Virus record (IMG/VR): IMGVR_UViG_3300045988_136409
Length of the DNA stretch: 39,499 bases
Source of the DNA: a virus
Strand: one strand, 5' to 3'
In this document: positions 187 to 39,499 of the stretch, one piece after another
Layout: each line of letters begins with the position of its first letter
Position numbering within the stretch: the first letter of the stretch is position 1
Notes under the pieces: model-generated
The model's input: only the letters and a program-made list of their open reading frames with translations
Database searches by the model: none
Told to the model about the DNA's origin: nothing
Translations under genes and position numbers: made by a program

Positions 187-1437
187 TTATGTAGCAATTC
201 GGTGTTCTTCAATAAATTTCATAAACTCTTTCTGACTTTTCTTGCTATCTTCTTTGCCAAAAAGGATAAGCCAGGCTCTGTACTTTTCCCACGGCATATT
301 TTCCGAGATAGGATTTGCAATATTATCAAAATATCCATCAATTTTATCATCAACAGCATTACGGATTTCGGAGAAGGTCTGGGTGTATACTTTTTTCATG
401 ATCTTATCAGACTTCCAGCCCCCGCGCTCCTGAGCATACTTGTCCGGGATACGCAGAGCTGCCATAACGGATGCGTTCAGGTGACGAAGATCATGAAAGG
501 TCATATGCTTAAAACGGTGCTCGTCTTGGAACTTGATCCACCGATGATAGATCTGAGCTTCGGTGAGGGTGACGAGCCTGTCCCCGGGGACCTTATCAAT
601 GAGAGATTTGATATAGGGCGGGATCCGGTGTGTACGGTTACGGTATTTGTTTTTGGCAATATCCTTACGATGATCCTTGCCACCTACGACAACAACTACC
701 TCTGCAATGCGGATGTGATCTCCGGAAATTGATTTCGTCTTCGTCAAGCCACGGATCTCCGACATCGAGAAACTGAGCCAGGCAGCCAGCAGGACCGGCA
801 GCTCCAGCTCGTTGCCTTTGATCGCCGGCAGAAGCGCCTCCGCAGGTATCAGATCAGGCACGCGCTCGGGAACTTCGGGAAGCTCAATGTTACGAAGAAC
901 ATCATCCAAAGAGCTTGTATATTTACGGATTACAGATGCAATCAGGCTCCATTCGTTCTGCAGACGTTTAGGAGAGAGCGTGACTCCTTTTTTTCGGTTA
1001 CACGGACGCTGGGATTCCATATTGACAGATTCCTGCAGGAGCTCTTTATCCATATCTTTGACACAAATCTGCATCAGGTCCTGAAAACCGTTCCGCTGGA
1101 TACACCTATAATCCTGGATAGTAGTAAGAGATCTATTCAGGACAAGACGGGATTCAATATATTTGTCTATCAATTCTGTAAGCGGAAGAAGAGTATAATC
1201 TACTTTTTTTTGCTTCGGCTGCTTTGCCAGTTCTTCTTCCTTCTGCAGAACAAATTGCGCTGCTGCAAGTTCTACAGTTTTTTTGGTGGGACCGGTAATG
1301 GTTTTATATTTTCTTGTTGTCTTCTGTTTGCCGTTTGGCATAAAAACAGGAGTGCCGTCTGCATTGTATACAGGCTCTTCGTGGCTATATGGTTTGACAC
1401 ACCATGTTCCACTCGGCAGCTTATAAGGTGTTGCCAT
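187..1437 (-). CDS. int: tyrosine recombinase, phage integrase
   Basis: The C-terminal segment FHDLRHLNAS...GGWKSDKIMKKVYTQT carries the HxxR and catalytic Tyr context. Start chosen at MATPYKLPSG (ATG 1437), preceded by AAGGAGGA. The gene is adjacent to the att core. Confidence 0.9.
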   Translation of the reverse strand: MATPYKLPSGTWCVKPYSHEEPVYNADGTPVFMPNGKQKTTRKYKTITGPTKKTVELAAAQFVLQKEEELAKQPKQKKVDYTLLPLTELIDKYIESRLVLNRSLTTIQDYRCIQRNGFQDLMQICVKDMDKELLQESVNMESQRPCNRKKGVTLSPKRLQNEWSLIASVIRKYTSSLDDVLRNIELPEVPERVPDLIPAEALLPAIKGNELELPVLLAAWLSFSMSEIRGLTKTKSISGDHIRIAEVVVVVGGKDHRKDIAKNKYRNRTHRIPPYIKSLIDKVPGDRLVTLTEAQIYHRWIKFQDEHRFKHMTFHDLRHLNASVMAALRIPDKYAQERGGWKSDKIMKKVYTQTFSEIRNAVDDKIDGYFDNIANPISENMPWEKYRAWLILFGKEDSKKSQKEFMKFIEEHRIAT

Positions 1438-1637
1438 AGTATCATCCTCCTTAAAATAGGCATAAAAATGCCCGGACATATGTTTGCATTGCAATCCGTC
1501 CGGGAAAATGATAAAATGCACTTGTTCAAGGTGATTTTTATCGGTTATCCCGGTAAAATCGGATCAGCTCCGGTGCTCCAACACTGGGGCTGATTTATAT
1601 TAATATTTTCAAATTTCAAGATTATTCTTGTAGGATA

Positions 1638-1666
1638 TTGACATATTATTATTAGAGTGCTATTAT
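1638..1666 (+). promoter_or_regulatory. near-consensus sigma-A-type promoter pointing into the 3' end of the SIR2 gene (antisense)
   Basis: TTGACA (1638-1643), 17-nt spacer, extended -10 TGcTATTAT (1658-1666). There is no plus-strand ORF downstream. Confidence 0.6.
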
Positions 1667-1671
1667 GTACT

Positions 1672-1736
1672 CGATTCGAAGCCAGCCCCTGTAAAGGTTC
1701 ACGACAGTGAACTGTTTACACGCTGGCTTTTCCTTT
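1672..1736 (+). ncRNA. candidate ~60-nt antisense sRNA, overlapping the last codons and stop of the SIR2 gene
   Basis: The predicted TSS is about 6-8 nt after the -10. A 51-nt near-perfect hairpin spans 1679-1729: AAGCCAGC/GCTGGCTT, TGTAAA/TTTACA and GTTCAC/GTGAAC, with loop GACA. It is followed by a TTTTCCTTT tract. Confidence 0.45.
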
Positions 1737-3335
1737 GAATAAATCATGATAGCACATCCAATCATAGATTTTAATCAAGCGTCTCAAATCTGATGAGTGA
1801 GGGTGTTCTTCACCAGTATAGATATCTGTAGGATATGAAGTGAGAACATCCATCAAATAATCTTTTAAAGATTCCTTTGTTAAATGCTTATATGGTAATC
1901 TTACAATGTAATATAGGTTTTGTGGGTATACAAAATTTTCACATATGGAAGCAATGGATGAACCATATACAATGGTTCTACTACGGCGAATAGATCCATT
2001 GTAAAAATCTTCGATATCGTGCTTTACATATTTGTGTATGCAATTAGGTATAGGCTTTTGAGCACCGGCTAAGTATTTGAATAATGGCATACTGCCACAT
2101 GTACGCGAAAGATGACCATACATTGTTTTTTCTAATAGGAGATCAGGATCAAACTGTTGATCATCAAATACAATATCACGATAAATATCTTCGGCACAAA
2201 ACGATGAATATGCAGATTCAGCAAGTTTGGAAATTCCGACTCCAATTACGAATTCAACATTCGTAAAGTCTTTAGTATTTTCAAAAGGTAACATAATTTT
2301 TACCTTATCTGTCGGAGTAGTGGTTGCTACCAAATCGTAGACATTTTCTTTAAGCATTCGCAACCATTTTACAGGATATTTTGTGTGATTCAACGCTAGA
2401 ATTTCATAAATCATCCCATAATCATTTACCTTAATACGAGTCATCGGAAAGTCCTTTCCGGAAACTGTATGATAAGATATAGAGTCAATCTCATAATCAT
2501 CCATCTTCTCAGAAGAAAGTCTTTCGATAAAAATAAAACGTGACTTAAGAGTATTTAACTGATCAGCATCCAGGCAAATGGCAATATTGTTTAAAATATT
2601 CTTTATATCTTCATCTGATATAGAGTAACCGATAAAAACAATAGGATGTTCGACAAAGATAGTCAATAATTTAGCGGCTAAGTACCTGCTTCTTAAATTT
2701 AACTTATTATAATCATCGGAATTTATAATAATGGAGCGTGGATCTGTACAGCATCCATGTATTTTATATATTTCACCAATTCCTTGCAGAGGTGAAAAAA
2801 GAAGCTTTTCCTGACCAATATATGTCATAAAATCAAATATATTTTCTAAAAGTAGATCGTAATTCGTTGTTATAATGCCAGCAATAGAATTATGAGAAAG
2901 TAATTTTAGTTTTTCAATTTCGTCAGGAAGCATGTATGCATGATTATTTGTAAACGAGGCAAAATAATTGGCAAGCGCAAGCCTGAAGGGAGTACAACCG
3001 CTTATTACTTCATTGCTATATTGAGTACGCATGGAAGCAAACCTGTCATCGGTATACCATATGCGGTTGTATTCTTGTTCTATATAATCAGCTATAATAG
3101 AGTTAAGTATATTCACAGAAGATGCATCTAAGTTGTCTTTATATATTTTCGCCTTTGCTGCGGAGGAATATTGGTAGAATAGCAAAGGGTTAGAATGATC
3201 AATTTCATCGCAAAAATGCATTAATAATCGCTCCCAATCTGGAGTACCTAAGTAACGGCGAGAGAATCCAGAGCCAATAAAGAGAAAGGGGAGAGATTCA
3301 TTAAAAACAAGGTAATCTTCAAGTTTCTTTTCCAT
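1716..3335 (-). CDS. SIR2-family (SIR2_2-like) protein with an unassigned ~240-aa C-terminal domain
   Basis: Motifs seen: LFIGSGFSRRYLGTPDWERLL (GxGxS), GIITTNYDLLLE, EIYKIHGC and PIVFIGYSISDEDIKNIL. Start chosen at MEKKLEDY (ATG 3335) with GAAAGGAA RBS. The longer track ORF would read through the upstream palindrome. Confidence 0.8.
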   Translation of the reverse strand: MEKKLEDYLVFNESLPFLFIGSGFSRRYLGTPDWERLLMHFCDEIDHSNPLLFYQYSSAAKAKIYKDNLDASSVNILNSIIADYIEQEYNRIWYTDDRFASMRTQYSNEVISGCTPFRLALANYFASFTNNHAYMLPDEIEKLKLLSHNSIAGIITTNYDLLLENIFDFMTYIGQEKLLFSPLQGIGEIYKIHGCCTDPRSIIINSDDYNKLNLRSRYLAAKLLTIFVEHPIVFIGYSISDEDIKNILNNIAICLDADQLNTLKSRFIFIERLSSEKMDDYEIDSISYHTVSGKDFPMTRIKVNDYGMIYEILALNHTKYPVKWLRMLKENVYDLVATTTPTDKVKIMLPFENTKDFTNVEFVIGVGISKLAESAYSSFCAEDIYRDIVFDDQQFDPDLLLEKTMYGHLSRTCGSMPLFKYLAGAQKPIPNCIHKYVKHDIEDFYNGSIRRSRTIVYGSSIASICENFVYPQNLYYIVRLPYKHLTKESLKDYLMDVLTSYPTDIYTGEEHPHSSDLRRLIKIYDWMCYHDLFKGKASV

Positions 3336-3349
3336 AAAATTCCTTTCTG

Positions 3350-3363
3350 TTGCACCGGTGCAA
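3350..3363 (-). promoter_or_regulatory. copy 1 of the 14-bp palindrome TTGCACCGGTGCAA (exact)
   Basis: On the minus strand it reads AAATTGCACCGGTGCAACAGAAAGGA and then the SIR2 ATG. It lies between the zinc-ribbon gene and the SIR2 gene. Confidence 0.8.
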
Positions 3364-3388
3364 TTTTTTAAAATGAAGATCATAAATA

Positions 3389-3673
3389 TTATAAGCCGTA
3401 TATTGTAGCACCAAAGATTTTACCACAGACAGGGCAAGAACGTTGATATAGTATATCGGGTAACTTTGGATAATTTTTATTCTTCCCATAAAGAGAAAAC
3501 ACCTGTTGATTATATTGTTTACAGGCAGTACAATTTCGATTTGCAGTAATAAGCACAGTATCAATATTCCACTCATTAATTTTAGGAATAATGCGTTTCA
3601 ACGAGACGTTTTCGATATCCGAGGGTAACATAGTCGAAGAACGGATACTGTTAAAGATTTTAGTGAATCCCAT
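3389..3673 (-). CDS. small zinc-ribbon protein resembling the conserved core of the phage MuF/SPP1-gp7 domain
   Basis: 94 aa with AAAGGGGAAA RBS and two Cys pairs, NCTACKQYNQQVFSL ... LYQRSCPVCG. By eye these parallel NPCPKCLPFVGKIL ... LYHPRCK in this phage's own MuF protein (22620-24260). Confidence 0.6.
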   Translation of the reverse strand: MGFTKIFNSIRSSTMLPSDIENVSLKRIIPKINEWNIDTVLITANRNCTACKQYNQQVFSLYGKNKNYPKLPDILYQRSCPVCGKIFGATIYGL

Positions 3674-4792: not shown

Positions 4793-4821
4793 TTGACAAC
4801 TAAAGAATCATTAGTTATGAT
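4793..4821 (+). promoter_or_regulatory. early (lytic) promoter for the Cro-like operon
   Basis: TTGACA (4793-4798), 17 nt, TATGAT (4816-4821). Confidence 0.65.
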
Positions 4822-4845
4822 GTAGTTGAACTAAAGAAACTTTAG
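4798..4845. promoter_or_regulatory. two related inverted-repeat operators (O1 4798-4816, O2 4831-4845)
   Basis: O1 is AACTAAagaatcaTTAGTT and lies between the -35 and -10 of the early promoter. O2 is CTAAAGaaaCTTTAG. Both share ACTAAAGAA. Confidence 0.55.
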
Positions 4846-37779: not shown

Positions 37780-38610
37780 ATGATGAAGGGCATTGACGTA
37801 GCAAAATGGAACGGAGTTATCGACTGGGCGAAGGTGAAAAAGGCAGGGGTAGAGTTTGCCGTCCTGAAAGTCATCGATAAATCCAATAAAACAGAGTCGT
37901 CTTTTGTCAGAAACTATGCGGGAGCAAGCGCACAGGGACTACCTTTGGATGTCTATAATTACCTGTATACTACCACTGAGGCAGCAGCCAGGGAAGCAGC
38001 CAAAGCAGTGGTAAATGCACTTGCCGGGAGAAAGATCGGAAAGGTATGGGCAGATGCGGAGGATGCCTGCCTTAAAAATAAAGGTATTCAGTTGATTTGG
38101 ATCCTTAACACCTATAAGGCAGTGATCGAGGCGGCTGGTTATGAGTTTGGCGTGTATACTGGGTTGTCCTTTTACAACAGTTATATCAAACCTTACAAGG
38201 CTTATATTGACTGTGATTTCTGGATTGCAAGATATCCGTCTACGAAAGATATGACAATTGCTATGGACCCGCCAGCATCAAAAAAACCGGTTATCTGTCA
38301 TAATCTTTGGGGCTGGCAGCATTCCAGCCGCGGTAGAGTGTCTGGAATCAGCGGATATGTAGATATGGATATCTGCTATACAAAGGTGACCAGTAGCGGA
38401 ACCGTGCAGTCAACTACGGCATATTATCCTAGATACACCGGTACATCTGGATCCATTGTAGCGGCACTTAATGCTGTCGGAGTTAACTCCAGTTTTGCCA
38501 ACCGTAAAGCAATCGCGAAGGAAAATGGTATCACAGGATACATCGGATCGGCAAAACAGAATATACAAATGTTAGCATTGCTGAAAAGTGGGAAACTTAA
38601 AAGGACTTGA
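37780..38610 (+). CDS. endolysin, GH25 muramidase with C-terminal cell-wall-binding domain
   Basis: N-terminal MKGIDVAKWNGVIDWAKVKKAGVEFAVLKV is typical of GH25. The C-terminal SIVAALNAVGVNSSFANRKAIAKENGITGYIGSAKQNIQMLALLKSGKL resembles an Amidase02_C-like tail. Confidence 0.85.
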   Translation: MMKGIDVAKWNGVIDWAKVKKAGVEFAVLKVIDKSNKTESSFVRNYAGASAQGLPLDVYNYLYTTTEAAAREAAKAVVNALAGRKIGKVWADAEDACLKNKGIQLIWILNTYKAVIEAAGYEFGVYTGLSFYNSYIKPYKAYIDCDFWIARYPSTKDMTIAMDPPASKKPVICHNLWGWQHSSRGRVSGISGYVDMDICYTKVTSSGTVQSTTAYYPRYTGTSGSIVAALNAVGVNSSFANRKAIAKENGITGYIGSAKQNIQMLALLKSGKLKRT

Positions 38611-39386: not shown

Positions 39387-39416
39387 AGAGAAAATAAATT
39401 ACAGGAAACAACTTGA

Positions 39417-39437
39417 TGCAACATGAAATGCAACATG
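39417..39437 (+). repeat. two TGCAACATG direct repeats, candidate integrase arm-type sites (int-distal arm)
   Basis: Copies at 39417-39425 and 39429-39437, in the same orientation and with the same 12-nt spacing as the left array. Confidence 0.6.
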
Positions 39438-39440
39438 AAA

Positions 39441-39470
39441 TAGAAAAACCCTTGAAAAATCAAGGGTTTT
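39441..39470 (-). terminator. phage-borne rho-independent terminator directly downstream of the reconstituted tRNA 3' end
   Basis: On the minus strand: AAAACCCTTG attttt CAAGGGTTTT followed by tctattt, starting 3 nt after the tRNA discriminator. Confidence 0.7.
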
Positions 39471-39473
39471 AAG

Positions 39474-39499
39474 AAGCGCGAGACGGGGATCGAACCCGC
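39474..39499 (-). tRNA. 3' end (T-arm plus acceptor strand) of a tRNA gene continuing beyond the window; attR core
   Basis: The reverse complement is GCGGG TTCGATC CCCGT CTCGCGC T. No CCA is encoded. The isotype cannot be determined from this fragment. Confidence 0.6.

Follow-up and report, generated by a model that had tools for sequence, protein, structure and literature searches.

A predicted small RNA gene converging on the SIR2 gene of the prophage defence candidate PDC-S25

The stretch of DNA analyzed here, a virus record of 39,499 nucleotides (IMG/VR IMGVR_UViG_3300045988_136409; hereafter, the window, meaning this whole stretch), is a prophage that encodes, on the minus strand of its left arm, a SIR2_2 protein of the PADLOC defence candidate family PDC-S25. 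At the 3' end of the SIR2 gene, on the plus strand, a promoter, denoted P1, and a hairpin with a T tract occupy positions 1638-1736 and face the gene head-on. We consider it very probable that this unit is a real, expressed gene for a non-coding small RNA (sRNA) of about 60 nt that is convergent to SIR2, an assignment that draws on the sequence of the window and of related loci. The unit and its partner gene consist of the following elements:

1638-1643, plus strand: -35 hexamer of P1, TTGACA
1658-1666, plus strand: extended -10 element of P1, TGcTATTAT (TG at 1658-1659, TATTAT at 1661-1666), behind a spacer of 17 nt
1655-1672, plus strand: 6-bp inverted repeat GAGTGC (1655-1660) / GTACTC (1667-1672), enclosing the -10 hexamer
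1673-1736, plus strand: predicted sRNA, about 60-64 nt, with the transcription start placed at about 1673 (7 nt past the -10) and the 3' end in the U tract, both from the promoter/terminator geometry
1678-1730, plus strand: terminator/structural hairpin of 22 pairs, starting 12 nt past the -10
1678-1686 with 1722-1730, plus strand: outer stem
1687-1689, plus strand: CCC bulge, invariant in relatives
1690-1702 with 1707-1720, plus strand: inner stem, with G1714 bulged
1703-1706, plus strand: loop GACA, of the GNRA type
1721, plus strand: C bulged between the two stems
1728-1736, plus strand: U tract TTTTCCTTT, overlapping the last SIR2 codons; its first three T (1728-1730) close the stem
1716-3335, minus strand: SIR2_2 defence gene (PADLOC PDC-S25), 539 aa from M17 of the longest open reading frame (ORF), with its 3' end (1716-1736) overlapped by the sRNA

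The SIR2 protein matches the Pfam SIR2_2 family (E 1.1e-21) and, over its full length, the PDC-S25 hidden Markov model PDLC04968 (E 7.5e-145, residues 15-546 against profile positions 6-515 of 517), and the N/D/H catalytic positions, N158, D160 and H193, are invariant. The homologues are 531-547 aa long, which places the true start at M17 of the longest ORF. In the structure model, the fold matches to DSR2, ThsA and KomC are restricted to the SIR2 domain; the C-terminal half is helical and gives no informative fold match, and neither a recognisable RNA-binding domain nor a nuclease domain was found.

An earlier note on this DNA, made from its letters, had described a plus-strand promoter of the form TTGACA-17-TGcTATTAT pointing into the end of SIR2. 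P1 is indeed present, with 11 of 12 consensus matches plus the TG and a 17-bp spacer, which makes it a predicted sigma-70/sigma-A promoter. As a class, promoter-like matches in the first 6 kb are no more frequent than chance predicts (18 observed vs 20.5 expected), and the remaining two 11/12 matches sit in the cI/cro early region; a lone match of this kind is not significant and, therefore, the case rests on the comparison with relatives. No plus-strand ORF of at least 30 aa begins between the promoter and position 1877, in agreement with the note, and the predicted transcript contains no ATG, its sole GTG frame, as read from the sequence, consisting of 11 codons without a Shine-Dalgarno sequence. 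The near-perfect hairpin with a T tract that the note had reported also stands: the plus-strand RNA folds with a minimum free energy of -28.7 kcal/mol (z -5.79; equalled by 0 of 200 shuffles), whereas the fold of the minus strand is weaker (-26.1 kcal/mol, z -3.6). On the plus strand, this stable hairpin leads directly into UUUUCCUUU, the arrangement of a rho-independent terminator, although a simple terminator scan missed it because the model of that scan permits only gapless stems with loops of 3-8 nt. A covariance model of the RNA, R1, matches the window at 1672-1737 with 82.8 bits.

The SIR2 stop codon (1716-1718) falls within the inner stem, and the 3' arm and the T tract cover the final six codons, KGKASV. 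The same hairpin had been proposed to serve as the terminator of the SIR2 mRNA as well, and this part of the earlier reading is not supported: on the sense (minus) strand, the stem runs into CGAAUCGAG, with no U tract, and so lacks the signature of a rho-independent terminator, a weak UUUGUUACU being found on that strand only in the related loci L006, L014 and L020. For want of a U tract on that side, efficient termination of the SIR2 mRNA at this hairpin is improbable in the window, and the mRNA probably reads on to T2 (1563-1594), the hairpin of a separate element described below, whose sense side precedes CCGAUUUUACC.

Relatives were obtained through a search for homologous proteins and the contigs that encode them. 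They include 13 distinct loci of the window type, in which SIR2 is 49-99% identical to that of the window; the alignment A2 covers eight loci (SIR2 57-99%). The -35 hexamer is unchanged in all 13 loci and throughout A2, at a spacing of 17-18 nt from the -10 element, which reads TGnTAnnAT in 12 loci and TGnTATACT in L107, hence TGnTAnnnT in every one of them. Pairwise identity within A2 reaches 100% in the -35, 79% in the TGn plus -10 and 83% in the non-coding part of the hairpin; elsewhere, the values are 34% (upstream spacer), 50% (promoter spacer) and 73% (adjacent SIR2 coding DNA). Conservation in homologous prophages, a check that the earlier note had suggested, is thus what the 13 loci display for both promoter and hairpin, and it is accompanied by covariation. 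Compensatory double changes are seen in 8 of the 22 hairpin pairs (for example, GCCAGC/GCTGGC to GCTAGC/GCTAGC; TTCAC/GTGAA to TTTGC/GCGAA or TCTAT/ATAGA; TGTAAA/TTTACA to TGTGAA/TTCACA), and 93.3% of the cells are paired, compared with 31-45% when the partners are slid. Shuffling 500 times never attains the observed compensatory-change or covariation measures, and RNAalifold, unaided, arrives at this fold as well, with 8 compensatory pairs, so that the hairpin, with compensatory pairs above both the shuffled and the slid controls, behaves as a conserved structured RNA. In three of the loci (L101, L102, L107), the inner stems differ, and the architecture of outer stem, CCC, inner stem and U tract is the same. 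Across the relatives, variation is free in the inner stem and loop and absent from the unpaired CCC and the outer stem.

The imperfections in these stems bear on the strand in which the structure is maintained. On the plus strand, the non-Watson-Crick cells comprise 24 G.U and a single A.C, each G.U being equivalent to a C.A mismatch on the sense strand, and the G.U pair 1696-1713 is retained in 12 of the 13 sequences. Because the imperfections are of the G.U kind and the U tract is on the plus side only, these patterns indicate that the fold is selected in the RNA antisense to SIR2. The position of the hairpin relative to the gene is less rigid. Most loci have their stop codon within the stem, by 13-22 nt; the SIR2 frame of L014, L101 and L107 ends 3-11 nt short of the hairpin, and L012 reads the 3' arm in a different frame. 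The GCTRGCY nucleotides are conserved despite this shift of stop position and frame, from which it follows, as far as such comparisons go, that the constraint on the hairpin is on nucleotides and not on protein coding, and the conserved feature, by the same comparison, is that the unit abuts the end of the SIR2 gene rather than that it overlaps the last codons. The transcript of about 60 nt overlapping the last SIR2 codons and the stop, which the earlier note had envisaged, is therefore predicted for the window, whereas the overlap is not conserved among the relatives.

The inverted repeat around the -10 of P1 covaries among the relatives as well (GAGTGA/TCACTC, AGGTGT/ACACCT, GAATGC/GTGTTC, GAATGC/GCATTT, GGTGTA/TACACC, GGGTGTA/TACACCC, TAGGTTA/TAACCTA), and all its imperfections are G.T on the plus strand. 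It cannot be part of any transcript that starts at P1; it could be an operator for a dimer, or a hairpin in a read-through RNA or in DNA. We rejected the palindrome as an operator of the phage repressor: it is found once only in the window and is unlike the cI/cro operators, that region using another repeat, AACTAAAGAAnCnTTAG.

Among the relatives, the sRNA unit always stays with SIR2, across four kinds of genomic context and whatever lies downstream, be it a tyrosine integrase (three sizes occur), a serine recombinase, an unknown protein of 515 aa, a Uma2 gene or a lysis module. Between the window and L001, SIR2 is 99% identical and the recombinases are unrelated, the homology breaking within a second plus-strand unit that, in the window, is situated between the sRNA unit and the integrase gene (int):

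1489-1605, plus strand: int-proximal unit P2/T2
1489-1491 and 1509-1517, plus strand: promoter-like site P2 (TTG and TGATAAAAT, respectively)
1563-1594, plus strand: T2, a hairpin plus T tract downstream of P2

The break falls between P2 and T2. Three loci (L101, L102, L107) carry the SIR2 sRNA without P2/T2, and the P2/T2 motif, TTG-N10-CCGAAGATGATAYAAT, recurs near integrase starts in more than 120 IMG/VR phage contigs (L108-L227), one of which has SIR2; in most of them, that is, in more than 80, the element abuts the stop of the gene preceding int. The possibility that the sRNA is linked to the integrase was rejected on these grounds, the unit being kept without P2/T2 in the three loci and P2/T2 occurring mostly without SIR2. 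On this comparative evidence, we are confident, to the same degree as for the existence of the gene, that the sRNA is the inherited partner of this SIR2 family and not of the adjacent integrase. The -35 and -10 of P2/T2 are themselves spanned by covarying inverted repeats, folding energies do not discriminate the strand of the element, and P2/T2 may be a structured leader of int on the minus strand, whether in place of a plus-strand unit or in addition to it. The T2 loop (1573-1584) reads GGTGCTCCAACAC in the window and the reverse complement, GGTGTTGGTAGCACC, in other loci (L012, L014 and L036 were compared) and, therefore, the T2 hairpin occurs in both orientations.

The layout extends well beyond the window type. 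In a wider set of 75 distinct SIR2 loci, spanning 30-99% identity, with 312 other ORFs from the same DNA as controls, we asked for an antisense-strand hairpin with a folding free energy of -15 or lower whose T tract starts between -25 and +45 nt of the SIR2 stop. Such a terminator is present at 80% of the SIR2 loci as opposed to 12.5% of the control ORFs, and about 45 of the 75 loci add a strong antisense promoter 65-190 nt away. At 120-170 nt, the sRNAs of the distant loci exceed the window type in length, and their sequences differ, with a GTACTYGATT-like 5' end in common. The terminator arm CTGGCTTTT is common to the window type and the L088/L097 group, and model R1 weakly matches the same position in L045, L088 and L022. 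The window-type sRNA seems to be a shortened form belonging to a single old family. Because the RNA gene accompanies SIR2 in many phages, the defence candidate PDC-S25, until now a single-gene entry, probably has an RNA partner. In a distant SIR2 clade (L036, L055, L074 and L079), the longer sRNAs, located between SIR2 and int, hold two copies of GGTGTTCGCACTAT, each a UUCG-looped mini-hairpin; the second of them falls within coding sequence in L055 and L074 and within the 3' untranslated region (3'UTR) in L036 and L079.

A known RNA family was sought and rejected. Rfam 15 yields no match in the window at gathering thresholds, with the matches across 1400-1800 at E up to 10 being noise, and only tRNAs in 20 related loci; ARAGORN detects no tRNA or tmRNA. 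Close relatives were not recovered by protein pattern in IMG/VR or GTDB, the SIR2 relatives in IMG/VR being only distant (30-44% identity), and BLAST of 1440-1800 against phage GenBank returned no match. A degenerate hairpin pattern has 0 matches in IMG/VR and one in a metagenome, which is SIR2-linked. A hairpin 19-mer has four GTDB matches, in unrelated phyla and in about the number estimated by chance, none of which fits model R1, and a weak model match at 38261-38326 was dismissed as lying within a coding ORF. With regard to targets, pairing of the sRNA with the SIR2 ribosome-binding region is no better for cognate than for non-cognate combinations (mean z 0.04 over 46 loci), and no complementarity of more than 10 nt was found elsewhere in the prophage, the 9-10-mers being about as numerous as expected by a chance estimate for 79 kb made without a shuffle control. 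The literature search found nothing on PDC-S25, its RNA partners or SIR2 antisense RNAs.

The remainder of the left arm provides the setting. It is entirely on the minus strand, in the order integrase, SIR2_2, Cys-rich ORF, ImmA/IrrE and XRE repressor:

187-1437, minus strand: tyrosine integrase, int
between int and SIR2: intergenic region of 278 nt
3389-3673, minus strand: 94-aa Cys-rich ORF with two CxxC pairs, between ImmA and SIR2
beyond the 94-aa ORF, minus strand: ImmA/IrrE protease, then XRE repressor

Neither Pfam nor PADLOC gives a match for the 94-aa ORF, which the related loci do not conserve. A 26-bp direct repeat, AAGCGCGAGACGGGGATCGAACCCGC, which resembles the 3' end of a tRNA gene, is found at 1-26 and again at 39474-39499; because it lies at both ends, the window is the whole prophage, complete at 39.5 kb, and the repeat is probably the att core (attL/attR). 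Close to both ends are ATGCAACATGAA repeats (150-185 and about 39415-39445), likely integrase arm sites. Two AACTAAAGAAnCnTTAG repeats (4798-4845) flank an 11/12 promoter at 4793-4821 and are likely to be repressor operators. In the int leader, on the minus strand, a hairpin GGCAU-AAAAA-AUGCC (about 1459-1473) lies upstream of the int ribosome-binding site and is followed by AUUUUAAGGAGG, and complementary CCCGGAC and GUCCGGG segments within 1441-1560 could compete with it; by virtue of the hairpin, AUUUUAAGGAGG and the competing pair, the leader (1441-1560) is a possible attenuator candidate. Just upstream of the SIR2 start, at 3350-3369 on the plus strand, the palindrome TTGCACCGGTGCAA followed by TTTTTT forms a terminator-like site antisense to SIR2 that might stop antisense read-through across SIR2; of the loci, only the window and the 99% identical L001 show it.

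How might such an RNA act? The best-ranked interpretation, to which we assign a probability of about 45%, is that the sRNA is a negative regulator that acts in cis on the SIR2 mRNA. It would be made constitutively in the lysogen from the sigma-A promoter P1. The sRNA is a perfect complement of the final 21 nt of the SIR2 frame, including the stop (1716-1736), and of the first approximately 40 nt of the 3'UTR, and it would pair with this end of the mRNA, which, because no U tract follows on the sense strand, is expected to read through the hairpin. RNase III or 3' exonucleases would then cut or trim the duplex, the head-on transcription started at P1 would interfere further, and the outcome would be that SIR2 expression is held down and SIR2 transcription is kept out of int. 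The overall logic would be that of a type I toxin-antitoxin system or of the lambda OOP RNA, namely, a brake on a potentially suicidal enzyme. The stronger proposition, that the sRNA is needed to prevent toxicity and is, in that sense, a true antitoxin, appears doubtful. Several observations sit uneasily with cis-antisense control. The overlap with the coding sequence is not conserved among the relatives; the covarying inverted repeat at the -10 is unaccounted for; a GNRA-type tetraloop is a poor kissing partner; and cis-antisense pairing alone leaves the invariant CCC and the outer-stem sequence unexplained, and the CCC, the only invariant unpaired stretch, could serve just as well to bind a protein or to seed pairing in trans. 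To our knowledge, moreover, DSR2 and ThsA are controlled at the protein level and no antitoxin is known for them; because of this, and because the C-terminal domain of the SIR2 model has no informative match, a brake does not seem obviously needed.

The invariant CCC also suits the view that the sRNA is a ligand of the SIR2 protein itself, a type III-like antitoxin or a sensor, which we regard as unlikely. The CCC-bulged hairpin would bind the NADase and silence or license it, and shut-off of transcription by a phage would lead to loss of the short-lived RNA and release of SIR2. An invariant CCC and outer stem combined with a free inner stem and loop is the typical pattern of a recognition site, RNA and SIR2 are inherited strictly together in all contexts, with the coding overlap dispensable, and cognate pairing to the SIR2 translation start is lacking. 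However, this SIR2, with a domain resembling those of DSR2, ThsA and KomC and a helical C-terminus, has no recognisable RNA-binding domain in its model; the sRNAs of distant members differ so greatly in length and sequence at the same place that position and orientation would seem to matter more than a fixed protein-binding fold; and the known type III antitoxins, which are tandem repeats upstream on the toxin strand, cut out and bound by the endoribonuclease toxin, are built differently. Quite unlikely, in our estimate, is a purely transcriptional insulator, in which the head-on promoter and the terminator shield SIR2 and int from each other and the RNA has no function, transcription from SIR2 being blocked from entering int or another downstream gene and outside transcription from entering SIR2. 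Something other than a sense-side U tract must stop the read-through from SIR2, and the analogous plus-strand unit P2/T2, abutting the stops of pre-int genes in so many contigs, makes convergent cassettes look like a general boundary device. Yet P2/T2 would already insulate int in the window, the SIR2 cassette persists where no integrase lies downstream and beside a neighbour that has its own terminator (L102, L107), and an insulator needs neither an invariant CCC bulge nor a conserved G.U pair.

Firmicutes sRNAs such as RsaE/RoxS usually have C-rich unpaired seeds, and the invariant CCCC(U) in the internal loop, together with a strong promoter and terminator of its own, would suit a trans-acting prophage sRNA, a moron, whose C-rich bulge targets mRNAs of host or phage by pairing at G-rich or Shine-Dalgarno sites and whose adjacency to SIR2 reflects co-transfer only. 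We find this distinctly improbable, given that the rest of the prophage offers no complementarity beyond 10 nt and the SIR2 starts no cognate signal, that no match lies outside SIR2 loci, the one in a metagenome being SIR2-linked, the viral scans giving none and the four GTDB 19-mers not fitting the model, and that linkage and end-on-stop geometry are kept down to 30% SIR2 identity, which a free trans-acting sRNA would not need. Least probable, and very unlikely, is that there is no functional transcript at all, with 1638-1736 being a DNA-level element, such as a protein-binding or recombination site, or a SIR2 terminator next to a fortuitous promoter-like sequence. The -10 does lie inside a covarying palindrome, a possible protein operator, and the hairpin folds on the sense strand too (at the -26.1 given above), but a -35 and a TGnTAnnnT at exactly 17-18 nt spacing in 13 diverged loci are hard to reconcile with this possibility, and imperfections confined to G.U as well as a U tract on the plus strand only are unexpected for a DNA site or a sense terminator.

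Cis-antisense control of SIR2, the reading that we favor, has counterparts. In Firmicutes prophages, convergent 3'-overlapping antisense RNAs control toxin mRNAs, the expected outcome being RNase III-assisted decay and/or a block of translation (PMC3834814, PMC5848175, PMC3531473, PMC6563280). As in these type I toxin-antitoxin loci (bsrG/SR4, yonT/SR6 and txpA/RatA of B. subtilis; CD0956.2/RCd10 and others in the phiCD630 prophages of C. difficile), the arrangement here is convergent and on a prophage, and the predicted RNA, like the type I antitoxins, would have its own sigma-A promoter and terminator; whether it shares their complementarity to the 3' end of the partner mRNA would depend on the position at which the SIR2 mRNA ends. 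The analogy with a type I locus, which the earlier note had drawn, thus holds for the convergent, 3'-overlapping layout and fails for the partner: the type I toxin is a membrane peptide of 30-60 aa with an RNA of 100-220 nt, whereas here a 539-aa enzyme faces an RNA of about 60 nt, so that, by definition, the SIR2 locus is not a type I system. The coding overlap here amounts to 0-25 nt and is not conserved, the 3' ends falling between -22 and +11 nt relative to the stop.

The short antisense RNAs of temperate phages, in lambda OOP/cII and, more loosely, in P22 sar/ant, offer another parallel. Lambda OOP is a 77-nt constitutive antisense RNA with its own promoter and terminator that is complementary to the 3' end of the cII mRNA and triggers RNase III cleavage (Krinke and Wulff). 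There is no sequence relation between the two, OOP targets a regulator of the lysis-lysogeny decision and not a defence effector, and the host in the present case is Gram-positive. The type III toxin-antitoxin and abortive infection systems (ToxIN, CptIN, TenpIN) resemble the SIR2 locus in that an abortive-infection effector protein stands beside a small structured RNA, and the logic of a labile RNA that decays once a phage shuts off transcription would fit; the present locus, however, is a single convergent unit in which no tandem repeat was seen, and no nuclease or RNA-binding domain was detected in its enzyme. DSR2, ThsA (of Thoeris) and KomC, the best fold matches, share the SIR2_2 domain with the N/D/H motif. 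The SIR2 gene of the window is a prophage moron between the repressor and int. We know of no RNA component described for DSR2, ThsA, KomC or PDC-S25, and PDC-S25, listed in PADLOC as a single-gene candidate, is here accompanied by a predicted sRNA. The novelty, so far as the sequences indicate, is the pairing of a cis-antisense sRNA with a large SIR2 defence enzyme, the general layout being already known.

A broader and rather doubtful proposition is that PDC-S25 is a two-component RNA-protein abortive infection module, in which a large enzymatic effector is guarded by a type I- or type III-like RNA antitoxin, in at least 75 prophage lineages. If this were so, a constitutive but short-lived antisense sRNA would silence the NADase, either via the 3' end of its mRNA or via binding of the CCC bulge to the protein, and shut-off of host transcription by an infecting phage would lead to decay of the sRNA and depletion of NAD+. 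Such a model is testable, with loss of transcription as the infection signal.

SIR2 NADases are among the commonest anti-phage effectors, and, as far as we know, what is understood of their restraint prior to infection concerns the protein level alone (DSR2, ThsA, SIR2-HerA). An antisense sRNA conserved in one SIR2 family would add a layer of RNA control and would turn a PADLOC candidate into a two-part system. Clones of PDC-S25 for defence assays should, in this light, include about 120 nt downstream of the gene, the omission of which may explain toxicity or loss of function. Finally, model R1 represents a new, well-supported RNA family that can be used for the annotation of gut Firmicutes prophages.

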